Source: Candidatus Saganbacteria bacterium (GTDB lineage Bacteria; Margulisbacteria; WOR-1; XYC2-FULL-46-14; WPAF01). From it: a stretch of DNA of 64,000 bases. Shown here piece after piece: positions 3,573 through 35,725 of this stretch. The position numbers were made by a program, and so were the translations under genes. The notes under the pieces are model-generated. The model searched no databases, had not been told where the DNA came from, and worked only from the letters and a program-made list of their open reading frames with translations. The stretch lies in NCBI GenBank assembly GCA_009772965.1, contig WPAF01000001.1, positions 78,639 through 142,638 of the forward strand, read 5' to 3'. Numbering within the stretch: the first letter of the stretch is position 1; each line of letters opens with the position of its first letter.

Positions 3573-5579
3573 TTATCCATTTTGCTCTGTTTCGTTTTCA
3601 ATTTTAGGCTCACTGTTTGATTCCAAACATTCATTCAAATAAGCTCCCTTTTTTGTCCCATACCAGACAACTTCCCGGCACCATTCTTCCCATGTTTTCC
3701 GCTTGTTTTTGTCCCTATCGATCTGGTATTGGCATTTTCTCTTTTCCAAATGAATTTTTTCTCCATTTAGAGTTTTACGGTAAATATCATAAATGTTGTA
3801 ATCAAGGGTTATTTCTTCTTTCTCATTCGTAAAAGGCAATTTAATAAGCGCATTATTCAGCCGAATAGAATCGCCCAATAATCCATCCGGCAATTCTATT
3901 CGCTTGTTTTTTATGTATTCTTCGATGGCATCACTAGCTTCGTCATAGAACTGTTGCAAACCATTCTCATAACAAAGTTTTATAAAAACGTATTCATCAA
4001 CCGGCCACCAAATATTAAGCCACTCTTCGGAAGCAATATATTCATTGCTGCCCTGCTGGATTTCTTTCGCTTTTTTGATAAATGTTTCGTTTATTTCTGC
4101 TATCCTTTTTCGCTCACTGGTGTTTTTCATAAATATTTCAATCAACTCGCGATAGCTCACTTCTGCAACTTGATTCATTATAACAAAAACAAGCTGCATC
4201 AATTTATTAAAATGCAACAAAGATGTCACCCAGCAAAACACTCTGGCTTTTACCCATTCTTTTGCAGGCATCGTTTTCGTCCCCACAACAAGATATTGTT
4301 TTTCAGATATTTCCGAATGAACACTAATGCTTGTATGGTGCGGCGTATTAATAGATTCCACAATTTGCATGCCGTATTTAGATTGGTAGTCGGGATGGGA
4401 CATCTCCGTGTTATTTAAAATCGATAAATTAATAAACTGAATTCGATTATGCTGTCCGCTGCCAATCACACTTGCCACGCCTTCCGTAAAACTTTCATAG
4501 CTCTCGTTAGGCAACGCCAAAATCATGTCGCTGAAAGTAGATATATTATTTTTTGCAAACATTTTTTGCAGGTCTGCGTACGTCTTATTGTTTATGTTGC
4601 TACGATTGATGCTCTCTAATGTTTCTTGGTTCACAGATTGAAGCGCTAGGTTCACTCCTTTCTGTAGTCCGGAATCATTCAATATTTTTTGTATTTCAAA
4701 AATGCTTGCAGTAGAATTCTTGGTGTTTTGCACCGAAAAAGCCTCGGGATAACCATACTTTTCCTTGTTTTCCGCAACTTTTTTCGCTATTGCCATATCC
4801 CTTTTTAAAATTCCAAAATTAGCATCACAGCAGAAAACAAATTGAATTTTATTTTTGCTTATCCAATCAATTTCACAAAAAACCCGGTCTTGCGGAAATT
4901 GGAGAACTTTATTCCTTGTTTTATCTCCCCAGTAACAGTAGGAACAAGAAAAAGGGCATCCACGATTTGTTTCAATCAAAGCCGACCATTTTACATTGGG
5001 ATTAGCAGCCAATAAAGGATCAAAAGTCCCTTCCAAGTAGGGAGACGGGATCTCATTCAAGTCCTCTATTCTCTCCGAGGCACCATTAAAACAAAAAAGA
5101 CCTTCTTTGCCAAGAAAACCTATGGAAGGCACATTGTCCCATGAACGCTGCCTCGCACTCTCCAGAATTTTTAAAAATATTATTTCGCCTTCACCGTAAC
5201 AACCAATATCAATATATCTATGCTTCTTTAGAAATGTTTCCATTTCTTCCTTATTTTCAGGCACCTCGGGTCCCCCAAAAACAATTCTGCACTTCGGCGC
5301 ATTTAACTTGACTCTCTTTGCAATCTCAAGACTATTTTGATAATTCCAATTATAAACGCTAAAAAATATTATATCTGCAGATAAAAGATCTTTTACTTCC
5401 CTATCTATATCATCCTTTTTATAAATTGGCAGGAGAAAACAATAGTTTTCAGGGTTTTTCAGTTTCTTTTGGGCGTAGGATTGCAAAAGACCTATCGAAT
5501 ACGGCAGATAATACTGATCTCCGAATTTGTCGCCAATCTGAACCAATCCTACTGTTGTTTTACTGCTATTTTTATTCAT
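3573..5579 (-). CDS. B12-binding domain radical SAM enzyme (class B-like), long form
   Basis: 668 aa. CxxxCxxC cluster motif RGCPFSCSYCYW preceded by an N-terminal B12-binding-like domain; about 250-aa C-terminal extension. Confidence 0.75.
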   Translation of the reverse strand: MNKNSSKTTVGLVQIGDKFGDQYYLPYSIGLLQSYAQKKLKNPENYCFLLPIYKKDDIDREVKDLLSADIIFFSVYNWNYQNSLEIAKRVKLNAPKCRIVFGGPEVPENKEEMETFLKKHRYIDIGCYGEGEIIFLKILESARQRSWDNVPSIGFLGKEGLFCFNGASERIEDLNEIPSPYLEGTFDPLLAANPNVKWSALIETNRGCPFSCSYCYWGDKTRNKVLQFPQDRVFCEIDWISKNKIQFVFCCDANFGILKRDMAIAKKVAENKEKYGYPEAFSVQNTKNSTASIFEIQKILNDSGLQKGVNLALQSVNQETLESINRSNINNKTYADLQKMFAKNNISTFSDMILALPNESYESFTEGVASVIGSGQHNRIQFINLSILNNTEMSHPDYQSKYGMQIVESINTPHHTSISVHSEISEKQYLVVGTKTMPAKEWVKARVFCWVTSLLHFNKLMQLVFVIMNQVAEVSYRELIEIFMKNTSERKRIAEINETFIKKAKEIQQGSNEYIASEEWLNIWWPVDEYVFIKLCYENGLQQFYDEASDAIEEYIKNKRIELPDGLLGDSIRLNNALIKLPFTNEKEEITLDYNIYDIYRKTLNGEKIHLEKRKCQYQIDRDKNKRKTWEEWCREVVWYGTKKGAYLNECLESNSEPKIENETEQNG

Positions 5580-6571
5580 ATTTTTGCAACAAAATAACTC
5601 TTTTTATTCTTATATTCCTTGGGATTTTGAATAAACCATTCCCAAGTTTTTTTTAACCCTTCCTTAAGAGTTGTTTTTGGGCGATAATTTATGCTTTTCT
5701 CAGCTAAAGATATATCCATTATTCTTTTATTTGCTCCTGTTGGCATACTTGCATCAAAAATATACTTAAAATCAATAATTGAAGCCAACGTTTCCATTAG
5801 CTCTTTAATTGAAATAGGTTTACCGCTTCCGAGGTTTACAAAGCCGGAAGGAGTTCCATAGTATAATGCTTGTATAATACCTTCAGCCACATCACGGCTA
5901 TAAACAAAATCTCTAATTGCACTCCCATTACCCCAGACAACCAGCGGCTGTTCCTTGTGCAGTATGCGATAAAGCAAAGAAGGGATAACCAAGGAATTCG
6001 CGGGATCAAAATTGTCTCCCGGCCCATAGACGTTGGATGGCCTGACGATCGCAAAATTATCCAGACCGTGCTCCTCTCCATATGCAAAGATCTGCGCCTC
6101 CGCCATTCTTTTTGCCCAGCCCGCAAAATCCATTGGATTGCTGTCGATCCGATATTCAGATTCCTTAAATATTTCCGCAGGAGCATAAGCGCCAACCGAA
6201 CTCGTGTATACTATTTTTTTGACTTTATTGAGCCGACAGGCCTCCAGGACATTGCTGTTCATCATCAGCATCGGCACAAAATGGCTGGCGGCTTTTTCCT
6301 TAGCAGCTTTAACCGACGCCCCGATCCCGGCAATATGGAAAACAAAGTCCATGTCTTCGGTCAGCTTTTTACAAAGGTCGAAGGAAGTCAGATCTCCGAT
6401 TATATATTCAGCTTTTTTATTCAGCCTGAGGCTATCCAAGGAAACAATCTTCAGGTGGGCCCCGGTGTCTGCCAAAATATCCGCGACTTGCCTACCGATC
6501 AATCCGGTTCCACCAGTGACTAAAATATCTTTTTTATTAAAACTCTCTAAAATATCTTTACTTATCACCAT
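5576..6571 (-). CDS. GDP-L-fucose synthase-like NAD(P)-dependent epimerase/reductase
   Basis: The ORF-track entry is 5576..6622. The likely true start is the internal Met (MVISKDIL...) at 6571, which removes the 50-nt overlap with the upstream gene. [14 protein letters not shown] Rossmann motif and VYGPGDNFDPANSLVIPSLLYRI, which resembles the Fcl/GMER motif. Confidence 0.65.
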   Translation of the reverse strand: MVISKDILESFNKKDILVTGGTGLIGRQVADILADTGAHLKIVSLDSLRLNKKAEYIIGDLTSFDLCKKLTEDMDFVFHIAGIGASVKAAKEKAASHFVPMLMMNSNVLEACRLNKVKKIVYTSSVGAYAPAEIFKESEYRIDSNPMDFAGWAKRMAEAQIFAYGEEHGLDNFAIVRPSNVYGPGDNFDPANSLVIPSLLYRILHKEQPLVVWGNGSAIRDFVYSRDVAEGIIQALYYGTPSGFVNLGSGKPISIKELMETLASIIDFKYIFDASMPTGANKRIMDISLAEKSINYRPKTTLKEGLKKTWEWFIQNPKEYKNKKSYFVAKI

Positions 6572-6572
6572 G

Positions 6573-7631
6573 TCAAAACGGCCCCTTGAACTCTTTATAT
6601 AGCGTCTTCTTATATTCTTCATCCGGCAATGATTGATTATGTTTTTCCTTGCCAGAACAAAGCTGATAAATATTATCTACAATATCTCCCATATCAGCAT
6701 AAAAATGTTTTTCTAACGCCTTTGTCGTCGGACAGGGAGATTTGGCCATCGAAATTTCCTTTAATGGGACTTTTAAACTGTCAGGTGCATTAACAGCAAT
6801 TATTCTCGCCACTTCCGCGCAAACCCCAAAAGAAGCCCAGCTTGTATCAGCCACAATCACTTTTCCAGTTTTTTTAACACTTTCCAATATCATGTCGACA
6901 TCGGGATGCGTCAGGCAATTAATATCTATGATCTCGACTTCTATCCCGGCTTTTTCTTTTACGTATTTTGCCGCCCGCTGTGCTTCTTGCACCATAACGG
7001 AAACAGCAACGATCGTTACGTCGCTTCCTTTTCTGATAAGATATGAGGTAAAAGGATTTTGGTCATCTCTCCGCTCTTTTACTTCAAAACTATAATCGTA
7101 TTGCAATCGATGTTCGAAGGATATCACCGGAGATTTATATTCATTTACAGCATATCGGTAACAATCCATAATGCTCTGCGCCGCCGACGGCATAATGACT
7201 GTCAATCCGGGAACATGAGAAAAAAGAGATTGCAGGCTTTGTGAATGCTGCGCCCCTTGCCCCCAACTTCGCCCGATCACTCCGCGAACCAGCATCGGCA
7301 CGGTAAAACAGCCACCGTACATATATTTGTACTTGGCGGCAGAATTAACCAGCTGGTTCATCGCTAACAGCATGAAATCATTCCTGATATGCGTGTGGAT
7401 GGGATAATAACCGCTCAGAGCCAGCCCAATGCCTAAACCAGTCATGGCATCCTCGGAGATCGGCGTATCGAAGACTCGCTCTTTGCCAAATTCTTTTTCC
7501 AGCCCAAGCGTCGTACCGAATATCCCCGTATGGTCAGTTACGCCAAGTCCGTAAAGCACGGTTTTAGGATTATCTCTTAGTGCCTCACGCATTGCTTTTG
7601 CCAGCGCTTGCCTGTAAGTCATTGTTGCCAT
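6573..7631 (-). CDS. ThDP-dependent 2-oxoacid dehydrogenase E1 beta-like subunit, pair 2
   Basis: 352 aa, paralogous to 1544..2584 (..DTPISEDAMTGLGIGLA..). Confidence 0.8.
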   Translation of the reverse strand: MATMTYRQALAKAMREALRDNPKTVLYGLGVTDHTGIFGTTLGLEKEFGKERVFDTPISEDAMTGLGIGLALSGYYPIHTHIRNDFMLLAMNQLVNSAAKYKYMYGGCFTVPMLVRGVIGRSWGQGAQHSQSLQSLFSHVPGLTVIMPSAAQSIMDCYRYAVNEYKSPVISFEHRLQYDYSFEVKERRDDQNPFTSYLIRKGSDVTIVAVSVMVQEAQRAAKYVKEKAGIEVEIIDINCLTHPDVDMILESVKKTGKVIVADTSWASFGVCAEVARIIAVNAPDSLKVPLKEISMAKSPCPTTKALEKHFYADMGDIVDNIYQLCSGKEKHNQSLPDEEYKKTLYKEFKGPF

Positions 7632-8551
7632 TAATAAACGTCCTTCAGAAGCTCTTCCCGCGGCGGAAAACCACTTTTTTCCGCAAAATTTACCGCTTCT
7701 GCTATTTCATTTTCGATCCTTCCCCTGTATTTTTCAATCAGCGCCCTGTTCCCGACCAGTGGATCCCGGCGCATCCATTCTTCCAGTTCTTTTCTCCCTC
7801 TGTAACCTTTATCATAATCCTCAGCAACACCAACATGTCCTTTATACCTATAAGTCATAATCTCAAGAAGGAAGGGTCGTTTAGTGTTTACAATTCCTTC
7901 CCTTATCTTTATTGTTTTTTCAAAAATATTTTCCATATCAAAGCCATCTTCTGCTAAAAAATAATCAATGCCATACGATCCAGCTAATGCTCCAAGTGTG
8001 TATGACTGCCTGATGCAGAGCGGCGCATGGATCGCCAAGCCATTATTCTCAATTACATAAAGTATTGGCAGATTCTTCAAAGAAGAAAAATTCAGGCATT
8101 CGTGAAAAGCCCCCTCTTCAGTCGCGCCATCGCCCGCCAAGGCAACTGCAATCTTAGATTCTTTCTTTAATTTTGCCGCGTAGGCAACGCCCATTGCGTG
8201 AGAAAAAATCGAACCAACTATCGCGGATGATCCCATCGAACCGTTAGCAGGAGAACAAAGATGCATTGATCCGGCTTTGCCCTTTGCCATGCCGGAATGT
8301 TTACCATACAATTCGGCAAACATTGCTTTCAAGTCTCCTCCCTTGGCAAGATAAGGCGCATGGCTTCGGTAGGTTGCAAAGACCATGTCATCCTTTTTCA
8401 GCGCTGCACAGATGGCAACAACATGATGCTCCTGGCCAATGGAGAGATGAACAGGGCTCTGGATCTTATCAGAAGGGTAGATTTCCACGATCTTTTCTTC
8501 AATCATTCTTATCCTGAGAGCCTGATAAAATAATTTTTCGAATGTATCCAT
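7631..8551 (-). CDS. ThDP-dependent 2-oxoacid dehydrogenase E1 alpha-like subunit, pair 2
   Basis: 306 aa; LAGDGATEEGAFHECLN...IENNGLAIH ThDP motif; YRSHAPYLAKG. Confidence 0.8.
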   Translation of the reverse strand: MDTFEKLFYQALRIRMIEEKIVEIYPSDKIQSPVHLSIGQEHHVVAICAALKKDDMVFATYRSHAPYLAKGGDLKAMFAELYGKHSGMAKGKAGSMHLCSPANGSMGSSAIVGSIFSHAMGVAYAAKLKKESKIAVALAGDGATEEGAFHECLNFSSLKNLPILYVIENNGLAIHAPLCIRQSYTLGALAGSYGIDYFLAEDGFDMENIFEKTIKIREGIVNTKRPFLLEIMTYRYKGHVGVAEDYDKGYRGRKELEEWMRRDPLVGNRALIEKYRGRIENEIAEAVNFAEKSGFPPREELLKDVY

Positions 8552-9541
8552 TTAAACTGTTTCCCTGGCGACAGCTTCACGGCAATGGTCTAAGAGATAT
8601 TGAACGCTTTCTTCAAAAGAATATTTCGGCTGCCAGCCAGTCTCTTTTTTGAATTTACTCACGTCCGGAACCTGCAGCGTCACATCCGCAGGGCGCAAAA
8701 GTTTCGGATCGACTTCACTTTTGATCGGCACCCGCGCAAGTTTTTTTAATAACTCCATGAATTCACCTACTTTTATCGTAGTCGGACCGCCGATATTGTA
8801 AACTTCTCCATAACGGCATTTGAGCAACGCTACCCAGTATGATTCCATAGCATCGCGAACATCAATAATGGTCCGTATCGAATCCAGGTTTCCGTGAAGC
8901 AGTATTTTTTGCTGCCCAGCTTCGATCCTGGCGACTTGCATCGTAAAAGAGGTCGCAAAAAGATCTTGCCTCCTTGGATTCAGGTATGCAAACATCCTGG
9001 TTCGTATGATCTTCATCTTATAACTGAGGTAATAGGTATAACCCAGCAGATCCTGCGCTACTTTTGAGACGGCGTAAGGGCTGGAGGGATTGATCGGGCA
9101 ATCTTCTTTGATCGGAACATTCTTCGGGTCAACCTGGCCGTAAACCTCCGAAGTGCTGCAAAGCTGGACAACAGGGTCGAGCTCTGCGATCCTGATCCCT
9201 TCCAGCAGATTTGCTGTCCCCATAATATTGTTGTTCAAGACCGAAAGCGGAGTGATAAAAGAGGCGCGCACATTGGCATGGGAGGCAAGATGGAATATCC
9301 CGTCAGGTTTTACCTGTTTCAAGGTGGAAAGAACAGAACTCAGATCGTTCAGGTCGCATTCATGCACCGTCACATTGTCCCTGATATTACGCAGATTTTC
9401 GTTGGCTGCGGTGCTGTGCCATCTCGATATCCCGTGCACCTCAATTTCGGGGTGATGATTAACTACGTATTCAGCCAGATAGCTTCCGCCTGAACCGGAC
9501 ATCCCCGTAATGATCACTTTTCTTATTTTTCTTTCGCTCAT
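8552..9541 (-). CDS. GDP-mannose 4,6-dehydratase / GDP-6-deoxy-mannose reductase family sugar-nucleotide dehydratase
   Basis: 329 aa; ITGMSGSGGSYLAEYV...HGISR N-terminus and a PYAVSK (YxxxK) motif, as in Gmd/Rmd-type extended SDRs. Confidence 0.6.
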   Translation of the reverse strand: MSERKIRKVIITGMSGSGGSYLAEYVVNHHPEIEVHGISRWHSTAANENLRNIRDNVTVHECDLNDLSSVLSTLKQVKPDGIFHLASHANVRASFITPLSVLNNNIMGTANLLEGIRIAELDPVVQLCSTSEVYGQVDPKNVPIKEDCPINPSSPYAVSKVAQDLLGYTYYLSYKMKIIRTRMFAYLNPRRQDLFATSFTMQVARIEAGQQKILLHGNLDSIRTIIDVRDAMESYWVALLKCRYGEVYNIGGPTTIKVGEFMELLKKLARVPIKSEVDPKLLRPADVTLQVPDVSKFKKETGWQPKYSFEESVQYLLDHCREAVARETV

Positions 9542-9544
9542 AGG

Positions 9545-10477
9545 TTAAATATTGGCGTACTGGTTCCGTTTTATGATCCGGAACGCCTTAATCAGTTCCG
9601 CGATCCCTTCCTGCAGGGAAACCTGCGGCTTAAATCCCGTTCTTTCTATCTTTTCATTGCTTACGATATAATCCCTCTTATCCGGATCTTCACCTACTTC
9701 GGCTTCCACAAAATAAAAATCTGGGATCAATTTTTTTATCTCCTGGCATAATTCCAGCTTACTAAGATTTGCGTCGCTAAGCCCAACATTATACGGCTCA
9801 TTTTTCATTTTCTCAAAATTATCCAGCGAATGGATGAAAGCTCGAGCAATATCGCGCACGTGGATATAATTACGGTTAAAATGCGCTTCGAACAGCACAA
9901 TGAATCGGTCATAGAAGGCGCGGTAGGTAAAATCATTCACCAAGAGGTCAAGGCGCATCCTCGGGCTGACACCAAATGCGGTGGCAAGCCTTAATGTGAT
10001 CGCGTTGCCGGCCGCCAACAGCAAATTCTCAGCTTCTACTTTGATCTTTCCGTAAATTGAGATCGGATTCAAGGGAGTGGCTTCAGTGCAATGCTTACCT
10101 TTTTGCCCGATCCCATATCCACTGTTAGTGGTCGGATATATAATGACCTGATCTTTGCAACGCAATGACAGAATCATTTTGATGGCATCGACGATTACCG
10201 TGTGAGCCGCGATCGGATCCTTATTGCAGAGCGGGGCACCGGTAAGGCAGGCCAGCGGAAAAATGGCATCCATGTCCTTCATATGCTTCCTGACTAGCTC
10301 TTTATCCCGAGTATCACCTCTGATGATCTCAAGTTTTTTATCGTAGCAACATTCCAGCAGCGAGGTTTGGCCATACATAAAATTGTCAAGGACTGCTACT
10401 GCGTGCCCCTGTTTCAACAATTCAGGCACCATGACTGAGCCGAGATAACCGGCGCCGCCTGTAACCAATATTTTCAT
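9545..10477 (-). CDS. NAD-dependent sugar-nucleotide epimerase/dehydratase
   Basis: 310 aa; MKILVTGGAGYLGS Rossmann start and a YGKIK (YxxxK) motif. Confidence 0.7.
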   Translation of the reverse strand: MKILVTGGAGYLGSVMVPELLKQGHAVAVLDNFMYGQTSLLECCYDKKLEIIRGDTRDKELVRKHMKDMDAIFPLACLTGAPLCNKDPIAAHTVIVDAIKMILSLRCKDQVIIYPTTNSGYGIGQKGKHCTEATPLNPISIYGKIKVEAENLLLAAGNAITLRLATAFGVSPRMRLDLLVNDFTYRAFYDRFIVLFEAHFNRNYIHVRDIARAFIHSLDNFEKMKNEPYNVGLSDANLSKLELCQEIKKLIPDFYFVEAEVGEDPDKRDYIVSNEKIERTGFKPQVSLQEGIAELIKAFRIIKRNQYANI

Positions 10478-10707
10478 TTTTTTTCTTCCAACTCCCGTAT
10501 AACTTTCTTATAAACTTTTTTGACTTTTCCCGGAAGATTTGGATTCAATAAAATTAGAATGTTCTTGCCTAAAACCCTGTATTGTCCGCCGATCTTAGCG
10601 GCATTTAGGAAACCGCTTCTGATCAAACGCCGAAAGGTGGAATCAGAGATCTTTAAAATGGTCGTTACCTCTTGAGGGGTATAGACCTCATTTTCGTCAA
10701 CTATCAT
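10474..10707 (-). CDS. Small helix-turn-helix DNA-binding protein (excisionase/MerR-like HTH), first gene of the short operon
   Basis: 77 aa; TPQEVTTILKISDSTFRRLIRSGFLNAAKIGGQYRV matches the excisionase-family HTH pattern. Overlaps the downstream epimerase start by 4 nt. Confidence 0.6.
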   Translation of the reverse strand: MIVDENEVYTPQEVTTILKISDSTFRRLIRSGFLNAAKIGGQYRVLGKNILILLNPNLPGKVKKVYKKVIRELEEKK

Positions 10708-10716
10708 AGTTGAAAA

Positions 10717-10744
10717 ATTATAGCACCTAGGCTAATTTTGTCAA
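10717..10744 (-). promoter_or_regulatory. Sigma70-type promoter for the short operon: -35 TTGACA (10744->10739), 16-nt spacer, -10 TATAAT (10722->10717) on the minus strand
   Basis: Read directly. The plus strand has tgtcaa at 10739-10744 and attata at 10717-10722. The predicted TSS is about 3 nt from the HTH ATG, so the mRNA would be leaderless or near-leaderless, and no Shine-Dalgarno is visible. Confidence 0.55.
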
Positions 10745-10756
10745 GATGCAATATAT

Positions 10757-10780
10757 CTTGTCAATTCTTGTCAATTCTTA
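10757..10780. repeat. Tandem direct repeat cttgtcaatt x2.4 in the divergent intergenic region (candidate operator)
   Basis: cttgtcaattcttgtcaattctta read directly. A third TTGTCAA copy lies at 10738-10744, overlapping the -35 element. Confidence 0.6.
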
Positions 10781-10836
10781 CGGTTAAGCGTGCATGGTAG
10801 TGGGCGGATACCGACATGGAATTATGTTTGAAAATA

Positions 10837-10845
10837 TGATAATAT
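10837..10845 (+). promoter_or_regulatory. Candidate extended -10 element (TGaTAATAT) for the plus-strand radical SAM gene
   Basis: tgataatat lies 10 nt upstream of the ATG at 10855. No convincing -35 is present. Another near-leaderless arrangement. Confidence 0.35.
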
Positions 10846-10854
10846 AGATTTTAT

Positions 10855-11820: not shown

Positions 11821-11851
11821 CAAGACAATGGTTGAATGAGAAAAAATAATT

Positions 11852-13597: not shown

Positions 13598-13598
13598 A

Positions 13599-14300: not shown

Positions 14301-14301
14301 A

Positions 14302-15537: not shown

Positions 15538-15548
15538 TTCGACTCTCC

Positions 15549-15776: not shown

Positions 15777-15796
15777 ACGCCTTCTCCTTCCTGATA

Positions 15797-25107: not shown

Positions 25108-25120
25108 TTATTACTCCTAC

Positions 25121-28725: not shown

Positions 28726-28746
28726 TTTATCTGCTCCTCATAATTA

Positions 28747-29757
28747 TTAGTTGCATGTTGTTTTGTCGAATTTTTCTAAGATTTGAGTAGCAACTCTGCT
28801 GCTTCCTATTCCATCTACATATTTTTTCCCAATCTCACTTGCTTCTTTTCTTATTTGCTGACTCCTCAATTCATCAAAACAATTTTTTACATTTTCAAGA
28901 AAGCGGGAGTCGTTATACCACCCTGCATATTTCATAAAACCAACTTCAGACCATCCCTTAAGATTCATCTCTTGATTATCAGCCACACAAATGCCAATTG
29001 CTGGCGTGCCAGTAACTGCCAGCTCAAAAGTGGTTTGTCCGCCCGCAGAAATTGCAATGTCACAGCTAAGCATTAAATCCCGCATTGCTTCGGCGCCAGG
29101 CTTAAAAATAAATCTTACCTTTTTGTTATTTTTATATTCATCCATATAATCAGTATTTATAAAACCCCAACCAATAACTACATTTAAGGTACAATCAAAA
29201 TTATTTAAAAGTAGTTCCATTATACGTGGGGTCGAGTTATTTGCATCATCCCCCCCAAAAGTTATAAGGACATTATTTATGTCTTTTTTTATAATTCGAT
29301 CATATGGCTTACAAAATTCTCTTCTTAAAAACGCATATTCAGAACCCAAAAGATAGATTATGTCCTCTTTTTCGGGATAACTAAACTTTCTAGCACAAAC
29401 CGATCCGTTGAGCACAATGCCAGACGGATAGTTAATTCGGTTAAAATCATCCAAACATACTAAAAGCTTAACCATTTTAGAAAGCCCTATATATTCCTCT
29501 GCTTTCATCTTATATGAATCTATTACTAACACATCTATCCCTTTTACCAGTTCGCTGGTACGCTCATAAGCATTTTGCCAATCAAAAGTAAAATGTTTAA
29601 TTACATTCTTAAACTGCCCCAAGACACTTTCATCAGAATTAACAATAAAAAATGGTTTTGCCCCTCTTTTTTCAAGCTCATAATACAAAGAAAGACAACG
29701 CATAATATGCCCAAAACCAATACCCTTTCCACCCTCAGTGCGGATTGCAATCTTCAT
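28747..29757 (-). CDS. pseG: PseG-like UDP-sugar hydrolase (UDP-2,4-diacetamido-2,4,6-trideoxy-hexose hydrolase family)
   Basis: 336 aa; N-terminal RTEGGKGIGFGHIMRCLSL matches the PseG signature (..GxGHxMRCLxLA). Confidence 0.7.
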   Translation of the reverse strand: MKIAIRTEGGKGIGFGHIMRCLSLYYELEKRGAKPFFIVNSDESVLGQFKNVIKHFTFDWQNAYERTSELVKGIDVLVIDSYKMKAEEYIGLSKMVKLLVCLDDFNRINYPSGIVLNGSVCARKFSYPEKEDIIYLLGSEYAFLRREFCKPYDRIIKKDINNVLITFGGDDANNSTPRIMELLLNNFDCTLNVVIGWGFINTDYMDEYKNNKKVRFIFKPGAEAMRDLMLSCDIAISAGGQTTFELAVTGTPAIGICVADNQEMNLKGWSEVGFMKYAGWYNDSRFLENVKNCFDELRSQQIRKEASEIGKKYVDGIGSSRVATQILEKFDKTTCN

Positions 29758-30482
29758 TTTTGTGCCTCCGGAATCAGTTTTCTATTTAAAACATATTCTA
29801 ATAAATAGAAATCTTCTTCATGATCAACTTCTAATATATAAGGGAAATCATGGATAAACGGCATTATTCTTCCCATGTAAAAATGCCCGTCTATTTGAGG
29901 TATGGATTCATCCATCAAGACTTTTGTTTTAATCGCCTGCACTGATCCATCATGCATATACGTCTTTGGCATTTCCTGCGTTCTAAAACGCAATACCATG
30001 GGTTTTTCTCTGAATTCTAAGAGATCTCCTCGAATAATTTTCATTGATTCCGGATGTTGATCTGCTTCGAAAACAGTAGACACGGTATCTGTTTTTTCAA
30101 AATTATCGATCAATTTTTTAATGACCCGATCAACCAATCCCTTTTCCCTAAAAGGAACATTGGGCTGCAACCAAACCACGATATCGGGAAGCCAACCTTC
30201 TGATCTTTCAATTTCTTTAACCGCATGCCTTAGAGCAAAATAAATGGGGGCTTCATCAGTGGCATACTCAATCGGGCGCATAATACACTTAACCCCTTCT
30301 TTTAGAGCTATCACAGCAATTTTTTCATCATCGGTAGAGACTACGCTTATAGCAACACTTTGTGCTTCTTGCGCATCCCTTATTGTATAAGCAATCAATG
30401 GGATGCCATTCAAAAGTCGAATATTCTTATTTTTTACGCGTTTACTTCCGCCCCGTGCAGGAATAACACATAAAGTTTTCAT
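29754..30482 (-). CDS. CMP-nonulosonic acid synthetase (acylneuraminate cytidylyltransferase family, PseF/NeuA-like)
   Basis: 242 aa; CVIPARGGSKRVKNKNIRLLNGIPLIAYTI. Confidence 0.8.
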   Translation of the reverse strand: MKTLCVIPARGGSKRVKNKNIRLLNGIPLIAYTIRDAQEAQSVAISVVSTDDEKIAVIALKEGVKCIMRPIEYATDEAPIYFALRHAVKEIERSEGWLPDIVVWLQPNVPFREKGLVDRVIKKLIDNFEKTDTVSTVFEADQHPESMKIIRGDLLEFREKPMVLRFRTQEMPKTYMHDGSVQAIKTKVLMDESIPQIDGHFYMGRIMPFIHDFPYILEVDHEEDFYLLEYVLNRKLIPEAQK

Positions 30483-31852
30483 GCAATTTTCTCCATTTTT
30501 GTATGTCTTTTTGTATTCCAGGCCTTTAATTCTTTTATCATATCTTCTCTAATTTCAAACAACTCCTCATTTGACCAATGGGTAAAATTGACCAATATTT
30601 GCTCTCCCTGCTCCCACAATTTACAAATATACTCAAATTCATTTTGGATCAGCCCTTTTTTTAACGCATAATCATATAATTCCGTCCCTGGGTAGGCTGT
30701 TGCAAAGAATATGGCTTCAGGGATAAAATCAATATCTTTACAAAACCCAACTGTCTCTCGGATTGTTTCTTTGGTTTCCCCTGGTAATCCAAGGACAAAT
30801 GTCCCCCCCACCTCGCCAAACACTTCCCGCGTAAGTTTAATGGCATTCTTGGTTTGCTCAACCGTAACATTTTTTTTCATCAGATCAAGCATCTTCTGGC
30901 TGCCGGACTCAATCCCATAACCAACCATATTACAACCCACTTCTTTCAAGTTTTGCAAAACTTCTTTATCTACCAAATTAACCCTGCCCGCAAAACAAAA
31001 TTGAAACCCCGGCTTTTCCTTTCTCATTAAGCCGCAAAAATCATCAATAAACCTTCGGTTGATCATTGATTCATCATCTGCCCAAATAAAATAAGTAACG
31101 CCATAATGCTCATTTAAAAAGCGCATCTCTTTTAAAACATATTCCGGCGAATGATGCCGATACCCTGCTCCCATAAAATCGTGATAGCAAAAAATACACT
31201 TATACGGGCATCCCCGAGTAACATTAATATTTGTTGACTTAGGCACGCCCGATTCAACCTGCTTCCCGTCTGCCCACTTATTCTTATTAATATGTCCAAC
31301 CGGATTGTTAACATAGATATCCATGGGGAATAGGTCATAAGCGGGCAAGGGGATAGCATCTAAATCGGCAATTGGTTTTCTCGCTGGTTTTTTTATAATT
31401 TTGCCGTCTTCACCTTTATAGTAGATCCCGGCCACGTTACCTAAATTGTCATTTTTGCTTATTGCATTTACAATTTCAACAATTGTAATTTCTCCCTCAC
31501 CGATACAAGCAATATCAGCTTGAGTGTTAGCTAAAATAAGTTCCGGAATAGAAGTGGAAACTCCTCCTCCTAAAATAATCTTCGCAGCGGGGCGATATTT
31601 TTTTATGGCTGCCACTAGCCATGTAATATATTTGGCGGTGGTCACAATTCCACCCGTACCTACAATATCATATTGCAGGCTCTGCAATTTATCCTCAACC
31701 TGTTCTTTTGTGTAACGAAAAGCATTGATATCTAATACTCCAACTTCATGTCCCGCTTCCCGCAAAACACTTGCCAGATAAGCCAACCCCAGGGGAACGC
31801 AATTTGGCGCAGCCCATTCCCTAATGGGTGGATTGATCAACAAAACCTTCAT
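30479..31852 (-). CDS. B12-binding domain radical SAM enzyme
   Basis: 457 aa; CPYKCIFC motif; N-terminal B12-binding-like domain (MKVLLINPP...). Confidence 0.75.
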   Translation of the reverse strand: MKVLLINPPIREWAAPNCVPLGLAYLASVLREAGHEVGVLDINAFRYTKEQVEDKLQSLQYDIVGTGGIVTTAKYITWLVAAIKKYRPAAKIILGGGVSTSIPELILANTQADIACIGEGEITIVEIVNAISKNDNLGNVAGIYYKGEDGKIIKKPARKPIADLDAIPLPAYDLFPMDIYVNNPVGHINKNKWADGKQVESGVPKSTNINVTRGCPYKCIFCYHDFMGAGYRHHSPEYVLKEMRFLNEHYGVTYFIWADDESMINRRFIDDFCGLMRKEKPGFQFCFAGRVNLVDKEVLQNLKEVGCNMVGYGIESGSQKMLDLMKKNVTVEQTKNAIKLTREVFGEVGGTFVLGLPGETKETIRETVGFCKDIDFIPEAIFFATAYPGTELYDYALKKGLIQNEFEYICKLWEQGEQILVNFTHWSNEELFEIREDMIKELKAWNTKRHTKMEKIA

Positions 31853-34131
31853 TTTGACCTCTTTAAAACATTAATATTCCGACATTTAAACTTGCGAATC
31901 TCACCATTATTTGAATCAACAACAATAAGCTGGGAGAAACCCATTTGTTTGACTTTCACGCAAAGAACGGCAGGATTTTTATCAGCAGAAGATTGCGGCC
32001 TTTCTCTTGGTTGATAAAATGGATAATACCCCTTTAAGAAATATATTTCATGTGCTTTATCTCCAAATGGAGGCAACCCGTCAATCAGCGCAATTTCCGT
32101 TAGAGCCGGCATTATAAACGGAACATGTCCTCTTTTTTTCGAAGAATACCAACACGACTCAACATTTGAAGCAAATAACAATGTTTTATTCTTTTCATAA
32201 TGCGGTAATTCGCCTAAAACTGAAACAGATTTCATCAATTTATATCTTGCGTTCTTTTTTAATCCGTTGCTAATAGAATCTTTGTTGTATAACGGACGGA
32301 TCAATGCCAATGTTTTTCCTATGTTTTTTTCTCTTCTGAACTGTTTTTCAATATCAGAAAAAGAAATTGGCTGATCACGCTTGTTTATAATCGCGATTCG
32401 ATAATCTATATTCTGCTCCAAAGTGTGATGGAACTTTGCTTTGGCATAAAACACCATGGCAACGACAAAAAATGAAAATATTAAAAACAAAAAAACATCA
32501 ATCATTTTCCTGGAAATACAAATATTCCCTTTAAAGAATTTGATGCTATTTTTATCCGGTAAAAACCTCGGCAAATATGCCAGCAAAAACAACATTGCAA
32601 TTATTCCTTGATAGTCCGCAAAATAGCCTTCTCCTCCAGAATTGATAAACAAAAATACTCCGGGCAAAAAGCCAAACAAAGCTAGAATAACTACCGTTTC
32701 AATGTCAACAAACTCATTTCTTCGCACCGCTTCATAAAACATACCTAGTGTTCTGACTTTTGTTTTATATATTCGCAAACCAATAAAGGTAATGGCAAGA
32801 AAATAATATAATAAAAAATAAACAGGAAGCAGGATGTGCGGAATGATACGAACAATATTACGCATCAAACTAGAATTGATTATTGTTAAAGGCGTATCTC
32901 CAGCCCCGCTATGAACTGAATGAGAGCCAAGGTTAAGAACTAAATATGGGTGAAATGCCACAATATATGAGGCGATTGATAAAATACACATCAAAATAAA
33001 ACTTATTGCAAATATTGGCCTCCTATATAATCTCATACGTAAAAAGAAATACCATCCCAACACCATTATTAAATAACCGATAGAAGCCTTAGCTAAAACG
33101 ATAAAACCCACAATAATTGGGACAATAACCAATAAAAAAAGACTATTGCCCGGAGTAAATCCTTCTTCTTTATTTGTGGACCAAAATCGGGCAAAAAGAG
33201 ATAATAGCAAAAGTGAAATAATGATCGAGAAAGCGTACGATTCACTAATATACCGATCATATCTAATGGCATAGTCAAATAGATTATAAAAACCAAAATT
33301 CAAAACACCGATCTGCATTATTATCAAAAGGATCCAAAATTTTATATCTGTTCCAATATTGAATTTCATATCCGGCAGCACAAGGCGCCTTATTTCAAAA
33401 ACAAACGACAGCATTACATTTATAAAAAGCGGGATAATAATAACCGGAAATCCCAGCTGATAAAATGTTATTGTTTTAATCTTTAACAAGCTGGAAAGAT
33501 GCGCAAAAATCAAATGACTTCCAAAATGATATCCAGTAAAGGGCACACCATTTAATCCGGTAGAAACTATCCCATATGTTTTAAGCATGCCCGCAATAGA
33601 ACTATGATACAGCGTATCTACATGTCCAAATCCGTAAAACACTCCTTCATAAAAGAGCGGATTAAGATACCCAGAACCCCAAACCAATCCCATTAACCAC
33701 AAAGAATATAAAATTATAAGCAATCCTGCTGGAATAAGAACAAGCGGTTTTACTTGCCTTAAACAATCAAATGCGCACCAAGCAAATAATGTCACCCCTA
33801 TTACGACAAATAATAAACTGATATTCATTCCAGTAAACGCTACCAAAATCCCTGCGCTAATGACAAAGAATAAAGCTAAAAGCAAAATCATTGCATCGCA
33901 AACCAACCAGGATTCTTTTTCTTTAATATTAAATCGCTGTTGAATATGCCTAATTCCAGATGGGAGCAAAATGATAAACCAACTGGTAGCCAACACAGTG
34001 AACACAGAAAATAACGATGTATCCCCTGAATTATCAAAACCTATTCTAAAGAAACAAAAAAAGGCCGCTAATACTAAAGCCACAACAGCAGAAAAAAAGG
34101 CGCCTATATTTTTTACCTGTGAATATGCCAT
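31849..34131 (-). CDS. Large polytopic membrane protein with C-terminal soluble domain (candidate GT-C-type glycosyltransferase or polymerase)
   Basis: 760 aa; many hydrophobic helices over the first ~560 residues and a C-terminal ~200-aa non-hydrophobic domain. No family assigned. Confidence 0.5.
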   Translation of the reverse strand: MAYSQVKNIGAFFSAVVALVLAAFFCFFRIGFDNSGDTSLFSVFTVLATSWFIILLPSGIRHIQQRFNIKEKESWLVCDAMILLLALFFVISAGILVAFTGMNISLLFVVIGVTLFAWCAFDCLRQVKPLVLIPAGLLIILYSLWLMGLVWGSGYLNPLFYEGVFYGFGHVDTLYHSSIAGMLKTYGIVSTGLNGVPFTGYHFGSHLIFAHLSSLLKIKTITFYQLGFPVIIIPLFINVMLSFVFEIRRLVLPDMKFNIGTDIKFWILLIIMQIGVLNFGFYNLFDYAIRYDRYISESYAFSIIISLLLLSLFARFWSTNKEEGFTPGNSLFLLVIVPIIVGFIVLAKASIGYLIMVLGWYFFLRMRLYRRPIFAISFILMCILSIASYIVAFHPYLVLNLGSHSVHSGAGDTPLTIINSSLMRNIVRIIPHILLPVYFLLYYFLAITFIGLRIYKTKVRTLGMFYEAVRRNEFVDIETVVILALFGFLPGVFLFINSGGEGYFADYQGIIAMLFLLAYLPRFLPDKNSIKFFKGNICISRKMIDVFLFLIFSFFVVAMVFYAKAKFHHTLEQNIDYRIAIINKRDQPISFSDIEKQFRREKNIGKTLALIRPLYNKDSISNGLKKNARYKLMKSVSVLGELPHYEKNKTLLFASNVESCWYSSKKRGHVPFIMPALTEIALIDGLPPFGDKAHEIYFLKGYYPFYQPRERPQSSADKNPAVLCVKVKQMGFSQLIVVDSNNGEIRKFKCRNINVLKRSK

Positions 34132-34147: not shown

Positions 34148-35725
34148 TTATCCGTTATTAACCAAAGTGTTTTTTGCCATGGCTTCCATGCATTTTTCCA
34201 ACTCTATTATACGATCATATCTATTTTTATTTTGAATCCTTATCGTCTGGCCAGCAATTCCTTTCTTGCCAACCACATCTTGCGAACTCTTTGACAAGAA
34301 ATCATAAAAATAATGTTTGAGCGTCCTCACGATCAATTCAACGTACTCCCTCAAAGTATGCTTAAAATAAAATATTTTTCTCCCGTATGTTGTGATCGCA
34401 AAAAAGTAATGAGTAAAAAAGAATAGTTTATTCGATTTCCAATAGATCAAGTGGTTAATGATAAGATTTCTCAAGGCCGGAAATTTCACCGCCACGATCG
34501 CCAGTTGGCAAAGATTGTACTGCGCATTCTTCTCCTTTTCCGGGAAGCAATCGAGCGGGCTGGCATTCCTCATGCCGTAATTGATATCCTCTTTATCCGC
34601 ATAATAAATACCGGCCTGTTTACAATAATCGCCGAGATCCGTTCCCGGATAAGGCATGAAAATAGAAAAATTCGGCATGTCAGGCTGCACCTTGATGGCA
34701 AAATCCACGGAAGCGATGTCCTGATCAAGAGTTGAGAACGGCAGCGCAAGCATTGTGTTCGCATAAACATTTATCTTGTGCTTTTTAAATATTTTGAAAG
34801 CTTCTTCCAGTTTTTCTTTGCTGATCCTGCGGCGCAACATGCGGTTTCGCAACATATCATCCCCTGCTTCGATAGACATACAAATAGAAAAACAGCCAGC
34901 TTTTTTCAAGTAATATGCCATTTCATCGCTTATTGTTTCCGAACGCAATAAACAATAAAAGGGTATTTTAATTTCTTCTGCCCATCGCTTAGCAAATTCC
35001 TTTAACCAATCATCAACTTTATGAACAAAAACATCATCCTGCATTCTTACAAAAGCAACCCTATAATTTTTAACGAGTTCTTTGGTTTCCCTTATTATGG
35101 AATCAACACTTCGCCGGCGGACAATCTTGCCCTTTCCTTTATACAAAGCGTTGAATCTGTTATTGAAACAATAAGGGCAAGGATACGGGCATCCCCTGCT
35201 TGCCCAGATACCTTTGATGCCGAATTTCGCCATTTCAGGGTACTGATAAACGAGATCCCTGTCCATAAATGGAAGAGCATCAAGGTCTTCGATAAAATCC
35301 ATCAACTCCAGCTTTGAATCGCTGGAAACCATGATGTTCGGTATGCCTTCCAAGCTCTTGCCCTTTTCCAGATTATTTACCACTTCAAGGATCGCTTTAT
35401 CTCCCTCCCCGACACAAATCGCATCAATATTGGGATCATCGATACAACTTCTATCAAGGGTAGCGTGCGGCCCGCCAAGCAGAGTAAAAACCTTTTTCCT
35501 CATCCTCAAATTGTCATTAAACTTCTTCATATCAGCCATATCAACCGACATCATGCTGTACGCGATCATATCAGGCTTCCATGAATCTATTTTCGCCTCG
35601 ACGTTTTCCTGCTGGAGGACGCCCAACGTCGTCTGATGCCCTTTTTGTTTGACGATTGCGGAAAGCATCATCGGCCCGAACGGCTCATTCACGCCCAGAT
35701 CATTGATAATAAACATTATTTTCAT
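34148..35725 (-). CDS. B12-binding domain radical SAM enzyme
   Basis: 525 aa; RGCPYPCPYCFN motif; N-terminal B12-binding-like domain. Confidence 0.75.
   Translation of the reverse strand: MKIMFIINDLGVNEPFGPMMLSAIVKQKGHQTTLGVLQQENVEAKIDSWKPDMIAYSMMSVDMADMKKFNDNLRMRKKVFTLLGGPHATLDRSCIDDPNIDAICVGEGDKAILEVVNNLEKGKSLEGIPNIMVSSDSKLELMDFIEDLDALPFMDRDLVYQYPEMAKFGIKGIWASRGCPYPCPYCFNNRFNALYKGKGKIVRRRSVDSIIRETKELVKNYRVAFVRMQDDVFVHKVDDWLKEFAKRWAEEIKIPFYCLLRSETISDEMAYYLKKAGCFSICMSIEAGDDMLRNRMLRRRISKEKLEEAFKIFKKHKINVYANTMLALPFSTLDQDIASVDFAIKVQPDMPNFSIFMPYPGTDLGDYCKQAGIYYADKEDINYGMRNASPLDCFPEKEKNAQYNLCQLAIVAVKFPALRNLIINHLIYWKSNKLFFFTHYFFAITTYGRKIFYFKHTLREYVELIVRTLKHYFYDFLSKSSQDVVGKKGIAGQTIRIQNKNRYDRIIELEKCMEAMAKNTLVNNG

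Follow-up and report, generated by a model that had tools for sequence, protein, structure and literature searches.

Five radical SAM genes in a surface-glycan island

The DNA analysed here, "the window", is a 64,000 nt stretch of Candidatus Saganbacteria contig WPAF01000001.1 (positions 78,639–142,638). It encodes five radical S-adenosylmethionine (SAM) enzymes, four of which carry an N-terminal B12-binding domain. All five genes lie in a surface-glycan island of ~48 kb (about 697–49164; ~43 genes), which Pfam and NCBIfam scans separate from the housekeeping genes that come after it. Nearly all window genes occupy the minus strand, in tight packing and with many stop/start overlaps; the fifth radical SAM gene is the sole plus-strand gene of the island. 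The four minus-strand B12-domain proteins are numbered rSAM1–rSAM4 in coordinate order:

3573–5579, minus strand: rSAM1, 668 amino acids (aa); CPFSCSYC at residue 208; B12-binding 36.6 bits, Radical_SAM 46.5 bits
15797–17212, minus strand: rSAM2, 471 aa; CPRQCTYC at residue 226; B12-binding 60.8 bits, Radical_SAM 78.1 bits
30479–31852, minus strand: rSAM3, 457 aa; CPYKCIFC at residue 215; B12-binding 71.7 bits, Radical_SAM 96.1 bits
34148–35725, minus strand: rSAM4, 525 aa; CPYPCPYC at residue 179; B12-binding 52.3 bits, Radical_SAM 64.2 bits
10855–11820, plus strand: twitch/SPASM enzyme, 321 aa; CNLRCAHC at residue 75; Radical_SAM 47.6 bits, SPASM 56.8 bits

The Pfam gathering thresholds are 32.1 bits for B12-binding (PF02310), 29.5 for Radical_SAM (PF04055) and 21.5 for SPASM (PF13186). 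A preliminary description of this DNA had reported five CxxxCxxC motifs and four N-terminal B12-binding-like domains, and both observations hold. A six-frame scan returned ten CxxxCxxC matches; the five above are in frame in long open reading frames (ORFs), and the remaining five are out of frame with any gene-like ORF. All four N-terminal domains score above the PF02310 threshold. The same description had called the density of radical SAM genes unusual. The density is real (5 of ~43 island genes) but not unique: 22 of 82 comparison loci centred on an rSAM3 relative hold two to four radical SAM genes, and some metagenome loci (L111, L115, L130) hold five or six. The window DNA itself was found again in ENA and Logan metagenome assemblies. 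Saganbacteria (WOR-1) are placed in the Cyanobacteriota/Melainabacteria group.

As far as their sequences tell, the four B12-type enzymes are four different families, with pairwise identities of merely 20–28%. Their top nominal NCBIfam profiles (bits/cut-off) are KedN5 for rSAM1 (264.9/700), BchE for rSAM2 (184.5/481), HpnJ for rSAM3 (179/578) and TIGR04013 for rSAM4 (96/251). The preliminary description had named a grouping with coproporphyrinogen-oxidase-like or BchE-type families as evidence against its reading; no such grouping emerges, since NCBIfam scores of this kind stay below cut-off. For rSAM3, the BchE profile (TIGR02026) gives 178.5 bits against its cut-off of 481, and the HpnJ profile (TIGR03471) falls short as well; the neighbours of rSAM3 are nonulosonic acid (NulO) genes, not hopanoid genes. 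Moreover, rSAM2–rSAM4 have BchE/HpnJ scores no higher than for the P-/C-methylases PhpK, Sden_1168 and MgmA. BchE and HpnJ were thus rejected as identities for rSAM2 and rSAM3, whose scores reach ~30–40% of the cut-offs and equal those for unrelated methylases; the two proteins are orphans rather than BchE or HemN members. Names given to homologues by the Joint Genome Institute (JGI), such as "anaerobic Mg-protoporphyrin IX monomethyl ester cyclase"/BchE and YgiQ, look like over-annotation.

We read the region as the core of a Candidatus Saganbacteria surface-glycan island that is centred on a pseudaminic acid (Pse)-type NulO cassette and built of four modules; to this reading, taken together with the mechanism proposed below, we give a probability of roughly 55%. 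Each module contains one radical SAM enzyme: rSAM3 in the NulO cassette (a), rSAM4 in an Arn-like module (b), rSAM2 in a tailoring block (c), and rSAM1 in a nucleoside diphosphate (NDP)-6-deoxyhexose block (d), from which the twitch-type gene is divergent. The glycan setting proposed in the preliminary description is borne out by PseB, PseC and PseG, which score above NCBIfam equivalog cut-offs, and by the presence of a NeuB/PseI-family synthase, Wza and Wzz. It is well supported that the radical SAM proteins are glycan-pathway enzymes rather than passengers, that two of the families show conserved, pathway-specific synteny and that one occurs in fusions with sugar-nucleotide enzymes. The modules, and the export genes of the island, are placed as follows:

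697–10477, minus strand: NDP-6-deoxyhexose block (d), around rSAM1 (NCBIfam/Pfam)
11852–24054, minus strand: tailoring block (c), around rSAM2 and a C-methyltransferase (TIGR04325 105 bits, cut-off 80; PdxA 355 bits, cut-off 290)
24055–30482, minus strand: NulO cassette (a), the part beyond PseB, PseC and rSAM3 (NCBIfam/Pfam)
36401–39495, minus strand: Arn-like trio of module (b), comprising a family 2 glycosyltransferase (GT2), a short-chain dehydrogenase/reductase (SDR) and a DegT aminotransferase (sub-threshold NCBIfam matches)
41949–42620, minus strand: Wzz-like chain-length protein (NCBIfam)
42633–44822, minus strand: Wza-like polysaccharide export protein (NCBIfam)

RfbA, RfbB, Wza and Wzz are encoded upstream of the modules, and the Wza-like and Wzz-like genes indicate that the island makes an exported surface polysaccharide. 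A Poly_export and Wzz pair likewise lies upstream of the rSAM3 cassette in another locus, L005.

Gene context of the radical SAM enzymes

The NulO cassette around rSAM3 consists of the following genes:

40614–41588, minus strand: PseB (TIGR03589, 544 bits; cut-off 408)
39449–40609, minus strand: PseC (TIGR03588, 523 bits; cut-off 424)
29754–30482, minus strand: PseF-like cytidylyltransferase (PseF 94 bits, below the cut-off of 206)
28747–29757, minus strand: PseG (167 bits; cut-off 153.6)
27628–28725, minus strand: lipoyl-domain::NeuD N-acyltransferase fusion (NeuD 169.3 bits, cut-off 160.8; Pfam Biotin_lipoyl)
26720–27631, minus strand: E1 alpha
26103–26723, minus strand: LplA-like ligase
25121–26128, minus strand: E1 beta
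24055–25107, minus strand: NeuB/PseI synthase (PseI 295.7 bits, cut-off 340; NeuB 316.2 bits, cut-off 400; both below)

Because PseI, NeuB and PseF stay below their cut-offs, these are family-level matches only, which do not fix the exact stereochemistry of the NulO.

rSAM3 is a member of a large family (3766 homologues at E≤1e-20), with hundreds of clusters at least 54% identical that bear generic names only. Relatives occur in 407 genomes in a scan of one genome per GTDB species, the best 80 all being metagenome-assembled genomes (MAGs). Among the bacterial hosts are Omnitrophota, Nitrospirota, Planctomycetota, Elusimicrobiota, Thermodesulfobacteriota, Margulisiibacteriota, Patescibacteria and Actinomycetota, and the archaeal hosts include Methanoregulaceae and Aenigmatarchaeota. 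PseB-PseC-rSAM3-PseF-PseG-NeuB is the typical gene order across many phyla, in bacteria and archaea alike. rSAM3 lies directly between a PseC-type aminotransferase and a CMP-transferase, with NeuB near, in three contexts inspected singly: an Omnitrophota MAG, a Margulisbacteria-like contig and a Thermodesulfovibrionales MAG. Neighbours were counted, by BLAST of window proteins against stop-to-stop ORFs, in 24 loci whose rSAM3 orthologue has ≥46% identity and whose flanks both reach ≥5 kb; one of these loci is probably a duplicate. NeuB is present within 10 kb in 20, PseC in 20, PseF in 18, PseG in 16 and PseB in 14. Of 16 comparably flanked loci in the rSAM4 set, which served as a control, one has NeuB.

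The position of rSAM3 suggested that it might replace PseH. This candidate was ruled out, as related cassettes keep a PseH-type GNAT, either fused to PseG or as a separate 178-aa GNAT; rSAM3 is therefore an added step, not a PseH substitute.

Two further features of these cassettes concern N-substituents. Firstly, the lipoyl-domain::NeuD fusion of the window, a NeuD/PglD-type hexapeptide acyltransferase, is flanked by E1 alpha, the LplA-like lipoate ligase and E1 beta (25121–28725). The fusion is recurrent, with more than 100 representatives of 50%-identity clusters aligning over the full length. The set could form a relay resembling pyruvate dehydrogenase, in which a 2-oxoacid-derived acyl group passes via lipoamide onto an amino sugar without an E2 catalytic domain; we know of no characterised example of such a relay. 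Secondly, a related Pse cassette (L021, 5286–7769) encodes a HisF-like cyclase, a glutamine amidotransferase of HisH type and, at 378 aa, a third protein without a Pfam match. Gene sets of this type are as a rule associated with acetamidino substituents of NulOs.

rSAM4 belongs to the Arn-like module, which resembles the ArnC/ArnT lipid-carrier route for amino sugars and whose other genes are:

38506–39495, minus strand: ArnC-like GT2 (ArnC 196.6 bits, PgfS 183.8 bits; sub-threshold)
37518–38609, minus strand: SDR 4,6-dehydratase/epimerase-family protein (NCBIfam, sub-threshold)
36401–37543, minus strand: DegT aminotransferase (ArnB 233 bits, PseC 251 bits; sub-threshold)
35732–36379, minus strand: class I SAM methyltransferase (Methyltransf_25, _11 and _12 at 52–59 bits), directly upstream of rSAM4
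31849–34131, minus strand: polytopic membrane protein, 760 aa, ~16 hydrophobic segments (hydropathy scan), between rSAM4 and rSAM3

The class I methyltransferase, also proposed in the preliminary description, is confirmed by Pfam. rSAM4 orthologues 58–75% identical to the window protein occur in Omnitrophota, Elusimicrobiota and many metagenomes. An ArnC-like GT2 shares the locus in nine of 14 other rSAM4 orthologue loci; where the flanks measure at least 2.5 kb, the GT2 (45–53% identity) is present in six of eight rSAM4 loci vs one of 32 rSAM3 loci. In an Elusimicrobiota MAG, the GT2, SDR and DegT proteins (52%, 72% and 62% identical, respectively) are encoded next to an rSAM4 orthologue, and the four genes follow directly after a Pse cassette, so that the Pse and Arn-like modules are linked in two phyla. 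Such a layout is to be expected of an enzyme whose amino-sugar substrate goes first onto polyprenyl phosphate as carrier and from there to a GT-C-type transferase. Elsewhere, the neighbours of rSAM4 include PMT_2, DUF7024 or DUF6798 membrane proteins with 10–12 predicted transmembrane segments.

In the window, the six-gene Arn-like module (from the GT2 to the 760-aa protein) splits PseC from rSAM3. The two are adjacent in other genomes, often with a stop/start overlap (L012, L019, L021 and others). The 760-aa protein has no Pfam or NCBIfam match and no BLAST homologue in 170 comparison loci. We dropped the idea of tying it to PMT_2, DUF7024 or a 775-aa neighbour in L004: BLAST, Pfam and NCBIfam gave nothing, and polytopic topology is all that they share. 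The protein stands where orthologous modules encode PMT_2, DUF7024 or DUF6798 membrane proteins, and it is a candidate GT-C-type transferase or polymerase.

The tailoring block (11852–24054, minus strand) holds, in order, genes for (i) a GNAT, (ii) a glyoxalase/methylmalonyl-CoA-epimerase-like protein, (iii) an acyl-CoA ligase, (iv) a phosphatase of the inositol monophosphatase family, (v) PdxA, (vi) a TIGR04325 methyltransferase, (vii) a class III aminotransferase, (viii) rSAM2, (ix) a C-methyltransferase, (x) a PIG-L deacetylase and (xi) a LIC12162-family transferase. The start of rSAM2 overlaps the stop of the aminotransferase gene upstream. In its relatives, rSAM2 is found fused to sugar-nucleotide enzymes: three proteins of 763–780 aa (P0271–P0273; 49% identity) continue into a C-terminal NAD-dependent epimerase/dehydratase domain, and the 704-aa protein P0325 carries an NTP_transferase domain. 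One rSAM2-type fusion is encoded directly after a YerE-type thiamine diphosphate (ThDP) enzyme, amid dTDP-sugar genes (L090). These fusions argue for a nucleotide-sugar substrate. According to its gene calls, a related 124-kb JGI contig has the same set of genes after NeuB, through the class III aminotransferase to rSAM2, and a second B12-type enzyme in addition.

The stretch from the GNAT to the class III aminotransferase corresponds to window positions 17205–24054, and its TIGR04325 protein is a Leptospira O-antigen-type methyltransferase. Its probable product is a side chain of the NulO, of an unusual N-acyl or amino type. For rSAM2 beside a class III aminotransferase there is a parallel: in gentamicin biosynthesis, the class B methylase GenK works with GenB, a class III (GSA-like) aminotransferase.

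rSAM1 lies in the NDP-6-deoxyhexose block, together with these genes:

9545–10477, minus strand: epimerase
8552–9541, minus strand: Gmd/LegB-like dehydratase
6573–8551, minus strand: E1 alpha/beta pair
5576–6622, minus strand: Fcl-like epimerase/reductase, with a stop/start overlap with rSAM1
1544–3552, minus strand: second E1 alpha/beta pair
697–1479, minus strand: SDR

The rSAM1 gene is thus flanked by two E1 alpha/beta pairs, which are 40–43% identical to each other and 30–34% identical to the third pair, that of the NulO cassette. An rSAM1 homologue of 45% identity (L171; IMGVR_UViG_3300044267_004484) is encoded directly after a YerE-type ThDP enzyme, and its other neighbours are a PanB-like enzyme, RmlC and glycosyltransferases; this sole rSAM1 homologue fetched from outside the window is on a contig filed as viral in IMG/VR. 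Neighbouring pairs of a ThDP enzyme and a class B radical SAM enzyme recur in L090, L103, L104, L110, L112 and L171, involving three radical SAM families and unrelated loci, which suggests a recurring duo: a ThDP enzyme that forms a branch and a radical SAM enzyme that acts after it. The L171 pair is at 8116–12037, the L090 pair at 8200–12313, and the window counterpart at 1544–8551. ThDP enzymes that add acetyl branches to keto sugars include YerE (PMC9306805), AviB1/AviB2 and Pau11/12 (PMC4753412). By analogy, the E1 pairs would install a C2 branch and rSAM1 would methylate that branch, maybe adding several methyls in succession.

The G+C content is 0.44–0.46 at window positions 6001–10000, compared with ~0.34–0.41 across the rest of the island, and the epimerase at 9545–10477 is 73% identical to an ORF of an Omnitrophota MAG (L014). 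This sub-block may have been acquired horizontally.

The gene contexts bear on two alternatives. The first is that the radical SAM genes are unrelated passengers, devoted to peptide, cofactor or lipid maturation, in a variable glycan island. The mosaic base composition (G+C 0.44–0.46 at 6–10 kb vs ~0.37 elsewhere), the want of a curated family for any of the five proteins and the peptide/cofactor maturases among the best matches of the SPASM protein would fit such a history. Against it, all four class B genes share their strand with sugar genes and are tightly packed with them, some with stop/start overlaps; rSAM3 and rSAM4 have conserved synteny and rSAM2 has fusions; and nothing resembling a precursor-peptide gene or a cofactor pathway gene was recognised among the neighbours. 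We regard this alternative as highly improbable.

The second alternative is that the targets of methylation or other tailoring are non-sugar substituents: either the N-acyl groups of the NulO or a side chain resembling an amino acid, made by the E1/lipoyl, GNAT, PdxA, phosphatase and acyl-CoA ligase genes. Acetyl, for instance, might be lengthened into propionyl, isobutyryl and pivaloyl, much as TokK and CysS extend alkyl groups. Several arrangements point this way. rSAM1 sits between two 2-oxoacid E1 pairs, the rSAM2 block (kept in the related contig) includes the acyl-CoA ligase, GNAT, PdxA and class III aminotransferase, and the Pse cassette has its E1, LplA and lipoyl-NeuD acyl relay. TokK and CysS, to which rSAM1 is similar (see below), act on small carrier- or pantetheine-linked groups, not on sugars, and diverse N-acyl groups are known on NulOs (PMC8157484). 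The enzymes fused to rSAM2 relatives, however, are sugar-nucleotide enzymes; rSAM3 also stands between PseC and PseF where a cassette is without these acyl-building genes; and no carrier-protein gene was recognised in the window. We consider it unlikely that substituents of this kind are the targets, and tailoring of activated sugars well supported.

Two further enzymes complete the set. The twitch enzyme had been described as a SPASM radical SAM protein; both Pfam domains pass their thresholds, but only four or five auxiliary cysteines are conserved. C252, C270, C313 and C316 are invariant in eight of eight relatives (C271 is kept in five of eight), and four invariant auxiliary cysteines fit one auxiliary cluster, making the protein twitch-like rather than a full seven-cysteine, two-cluster SPASM enzyme. 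Its spacing, C-x17-C-x42-C-x2-C, resembles the ligand spacing of BtrN. The BtrN-like role suggested earlier fits a single auxiliary cluster, but the similarity is weak and no better than that to peptide maturases: PDB matches are to PqqE (1e-5), SkfB (3e-5) and BtrN (5e-4, with no significant stretch), and the best matches overall are peptide/cofactor maturases (W-cofactor maturase, PqqE). Relatives of 25–31% identity stand beside class B enzymes and NulO/amino-sugar genes in at least nine other loci that were fetched for other reasons. BtrN-like alcohol oxidation or epimerisation is a plausible role.

The second is the C-methyltransferase that follows rSAM2:

14302–15537, minus strand: TcaB9/TylC3-type NDP-sugar C-methyltransferase (Methyltransf_23, PF13489, 67.3 bits; Methyltransf_14, PF08484, 29.2 bits, cut-off 23.5)

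A Cys4 zinc ribbon (C6, C9, C56, C59) is visible in its sequence, although the N-terminal Pfam model PF08421 gives no score on this protein. Its PDB matches are TcaB9, a sugar 3-C-methyltransferase (E 2.3e-12), and D-mycarose 3-C-methyltransferase (E 5.7e-11). The architecture proposed earlier for this protein, namely zinc ribbon, SAM domain and C-terminal C-methyltransferase domain, is confirmed by Cys4, PF13489, PF08484 and the TcaB9 match.

Predicted chemistry and its alternatives

We propose that the radical SAM enzymes would be oxygen-independent C-H functionalisers acting on nucleotide-activated amino-deoxy sugars or on their ThDP-attached acyl or hydroxyethyl branches. For the B12-type enzymes, the default course would be that (i) a 5'-deoxyadenosyl radical takes hydrogen from an unactivated sp3 carbon, (ii) methylcobalamin donates a methyl group, and (iii) a second SAM re-methylates cob(I)alamin. 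The twitch enzyme would most plausibly carry out the alcohol oxidation or epimerisation named above. Cobalamin binding, methyl transfer on unactivated carbons and the exact substrates are predicted here from the domain content, folds, family separateness, gene context and gene fusions that we observe. Cobalamin is bound base-off and His-off in class B enzymes, hence no universal sequence motif marks its site.

Among the four B12-type enzymes, C-methylation is well supported for rSAM1 only. A PDB search matches rSAM1 to TokK (E 2.5e-80, residues 22–480) and CysS (E 7.5e-60), two cobalamin-dependent radical SAM methylases that add methyls in succession. The KedN5/TokK/CysS profile NF033712 covers residues 67–622 of rSAM1 (profile positions 62–600 of 624; E 1.2e-78), at a score of 264.9 bits against a cut-off of 700, which makes rSAM1 a homologue rather than a curated member. 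W217 of rSAM1 (CYWGDKT) aligns with W215 of TokK (CDWGSAT), the residue that sits between cobalamin and the cluster (PMC12931638). On these similarities, rSAM1 is probably a cobalamin-dependent, possibly iterative, C-methyltransferase of the TokK/CysS/KedN5 type, and methylation by this enzyme seems likely.

For rSAM2–rSAM4, C-methylation is our leading guess, and its main rival is AprD4-like or other radical chemistry. An AlphaFold (AF2) model of rSAM3, built from a 19-sequence alignment (predicted local distance difference test [pLDDT] score 87.6), matches MgmA, TsrM, OxsB, AprD4, CysS and TokK. MgmA is both the best PDB sequence match of rSAM3 (6e-23) and the best Foldseek match of its model (E 2e-22). 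The N-terminal domain of rSAM3 taken alone matches CysS (1.8e-6), MgmA, OxsB and TsrM, all cobalamin-binding, and gives no match to AprD4. The rSAM4 model (pLDDT 85.7) likewise has a class B fold with MgmA as its best Foldseek match (E 1e-20), and both models superpose on MgmA, TsrM, OxsB, CysS and TokK. We would put methylation at slightly less than an even chance for each of rSAM2, rSAM3 and rSAM4.

In the rival account, rSAM2, rSAM3 and/or rSAM4 do not methylate. They would instead catalyse AprD4-like 1,2-diol dehydration, epimerisation, oxidation before transamination, or an OxsB/HpnJ/BchE-type rearrangement, the N-terminal Rossmann domain being degenerate or serving another role. The substrate of AprD4 is an amino sugar, and class III or DegT aminotransferases often adjoin these genes, as if a radical oxidation fed a transamination; the top NCBIfam scores to BchE and HpnJ would also suit this account. 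Set against it, the AprD4 alignments are confined to the radical SAM core (e.g., residues 207–404 of rSAM3), whereas cobalamin-binding enzymes are what the N-terminal domains align with, at 52–72 bits on the Pfam B12-binding model, above its threshold. The scores on the AprD4 family NF033070 are 87.7 bits for rSAM2, 80.5 for rSAM3 and 76.5 for rSAM4, with alignments from about residue 145 on; none exceeds 88 bits, against a cut-off of 500. Finally, most characterised class B enzymes are methyltransferases, according to the list in a 2026 review (PMC12931638). Taken together, we consider non-methylating chemistry in these enzymes somewhat unlikely.

Several points weigh against our reading of the locus and its chemistry. 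None of the five radical SAM enzymes scores at any NCBIfam curated cut-off, and so none takes a function from orthology. AprD4 (PDB 6fd2) is the best or second-best PDB sequence match of rSAM2 (1.8e-19), rSAM4 (8.5e-19) and rSAM3 (2e-18), and it gives the highest TM-score of the rSAM3 model (0.75/0.76). It also demonstrates that a B12-like fold can be without cobalamin. Class B further includes the non-methylases BchE, HpnJ and OxsB, with equally high sub-threshold scores. The N-terminal domain of rSAM4, taken alone, matches no cobalamin-bound structure, making cobalamin use least certain for this enzyme. A Rfam scan of the whole 64,000-nt window returned no family at gathering score, and hence no cobalamin or SAM riboswitch near these genes; within the window there is neither a cobalamin riboswitch nor a cobalamin gene. 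The neighbour counts derive from loci picked by similarity, which are not an unbiased sample, and the comparison genomes are all MAGs. For rSAM1, the scan of viral contigs gave a single locus, leaving an outside context of n=1. To our knowledge, no C-methylated nonulosonic acid has been described.

The preliminary description had expected heavily C-methylated sugars, an expectation drawn from superfamily membership. Only rSAM1 is closely tied to proven methylases, and the nearest solved relatives of rSAM2–rSAM4 include AprD4 besides the methylase MgmA. The group modified may also be a branch, N-acyl or installed by ThDP enzymes, and not the sugar ring.

A more far-reaching proposal can be made for rSAM3, namely that uncultured anaerobes of several phylum-level lineages, bacterial and archaeal, share a conserved and so far unrecognised extra step of Pse-type synthesis. 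In that step, rSAM3 would methylate a carbon of CMP-Pse or of a UDP-4-amino-6-deoxyhexose intermediate by cobalamin-dependent radical chemistry. The products would be C-methyl ulosonic acids with, formally, ten carbons. In parallel, rSAM4 would act on an amino sugar destined for an ArnC/ArnT-like lipid-carrier route. We think it decidedly unlikely that this proposal is correct. Rare ulosonic acids of unexplained origin, labelled "potential 10 C", were reported in a mass spectrometry survey of NulOs from microbes (PMC8157484); a C-methylated Pse would look the same by mass spectrometry, though the link is speculative.

Significance and comparison with known systems

In full-text literature searches, no paper turned up that connects radical SAM enzymes with the making of nonulosonic, pseudaminic or legionaminic acids, and searches on radical SAM with O-antigen or Saganbacteria gave nothing relevant. 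In the 2026 class B review, the words sugar, glycan and polysaccharide are absent (PMC12931638). Class B radical SAM enzymes are known almost wholly from antibiotics, cofactors, lipids and the modification of peptides and proteins. Here, known enzyme classes and a known sugar pathway are joined in a conserved, undescribed arrangement: in many lineages of uncultured anaerobes, class B enzymes recur within the pathways for cell-surface glycans, with one family inside the Pse cassette. That relatives of at least two of the enzymes occur in the same kind of sugar pathway elsewhere points to an unexplored oxygen-free sugar chemistry. If this chemistry is as in the enzymes' relatives, the surfaces of these cells would carry undescribed C-methylated or otherwise radically modified sugars. 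If the C-methylation proposal for rSAM3 is true, genes could be assigned to the "potential 10 C" ulosonic acids, which are known by mass spectrometry alone (PMC8157484). The locus also provides gene targets for (i) discovering enzymes that methylate unactivated carbons of nucleotide sugars, (ii) explaining unassigned NulO masses in environmental glycomics, and (iii) making modified Pse/Leg-type sugars that are hard to synthesise.

Among characterised radical SAM enzymes, rSAM1 is most readily compared with TokK, ThnK, CysS and KedN5, with which it shares a B12 domain, a radical SAM core and a tryptophan after the cluster motif, matching the KedN5 profile over nearly its full length. Those enzymes belong to carbapenem, cystobactamid and enediyne clusters and use pantetheinyl- or carrier-linked substrates, whereas rSAM1 lies amid NDP-sugar and ThDP E1 genes. 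GenK, GenD1, MoeK5 and Fom3 are class B methylases that act on sugar or CMP-linked substrates (PMC12931638). They resemble the window enzymes in class and in their use of sugar or cytidylylated substrates, a comparison made by description, not by sequence. The substrates of GenK, GenD1 and MoeK5 are aminoglycoside or moenomycin sugars and that of Fom3 is a CMP-linked phosphonate, and the four come from actinomycete secondary-metabolite clusters rather than from cell-surface glycan loci of uncultured anaerobes.

MgmA/QCMT (PDB 9ccb), the glutamine C-methyltransferase of methyl-coenzyme M reductase, is a cobalamin-dependent sp3 C-methylase and has the closest fold to the rSAM3 and rSAM4 models. 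It differs in sequence (16–23% identity; 130 and 63 bits on TIGR04014, cut-off 360) and in that its substrate is a protein. AprD4, the radical SAM 1,2-diol dehydratase of apramycin biosynthesis, shares a similar fold, a two-domain layout and an amino-sugar substrate. The N-terminal domain of AprD4 is without cobalamin; the alignment is confined to the radical SAM core, and the N-terminal domains of rSAM2–rSAM4 pass the B12-binding model. BtrN and the twitch enzyme are both small radical SAM enzymes with one auxiliary-cluster domain, and the latter has an amino-sugar gene context. The similarity is marginal (below PqqE and SkfB), however, and the twitch enzyme matches no curated family.

In the systems of AviB1/AviB2 and Pau11/12, ThDP genes stand beside NDP-hexose dehydratase and epimerase genes, as do the two E1 pairs of block (d), for which a sugar-branching role is predicted. 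A YerE-type enzyme adjoins both the rSAM1 homologue's gene in L171 and the rSAM2 homologue's gene in L090; we know of no report in which YerE- or AviB1/AviB2-type systems occur together with a class B radical SAM enzyme. Lastly, the locus shares with the canonical pseudaminic acid pathway (PseB, PseC, PseH, PseG, PseI, PseF) the PseB, PseC and PseG equivalogs, a NeuB/PseI-family synthase and a CMP-transferase. It departs from that pathway in two respects. Firstly, the N-acyltransferase of the window joins a lipoyl domain to NeuD and is accompanied by an E1 alpha/beta pair and a lipoate ligase of its own. Secondly, in many phyla, an extra B12-type radical SAM gene stands between PseC and PseF.

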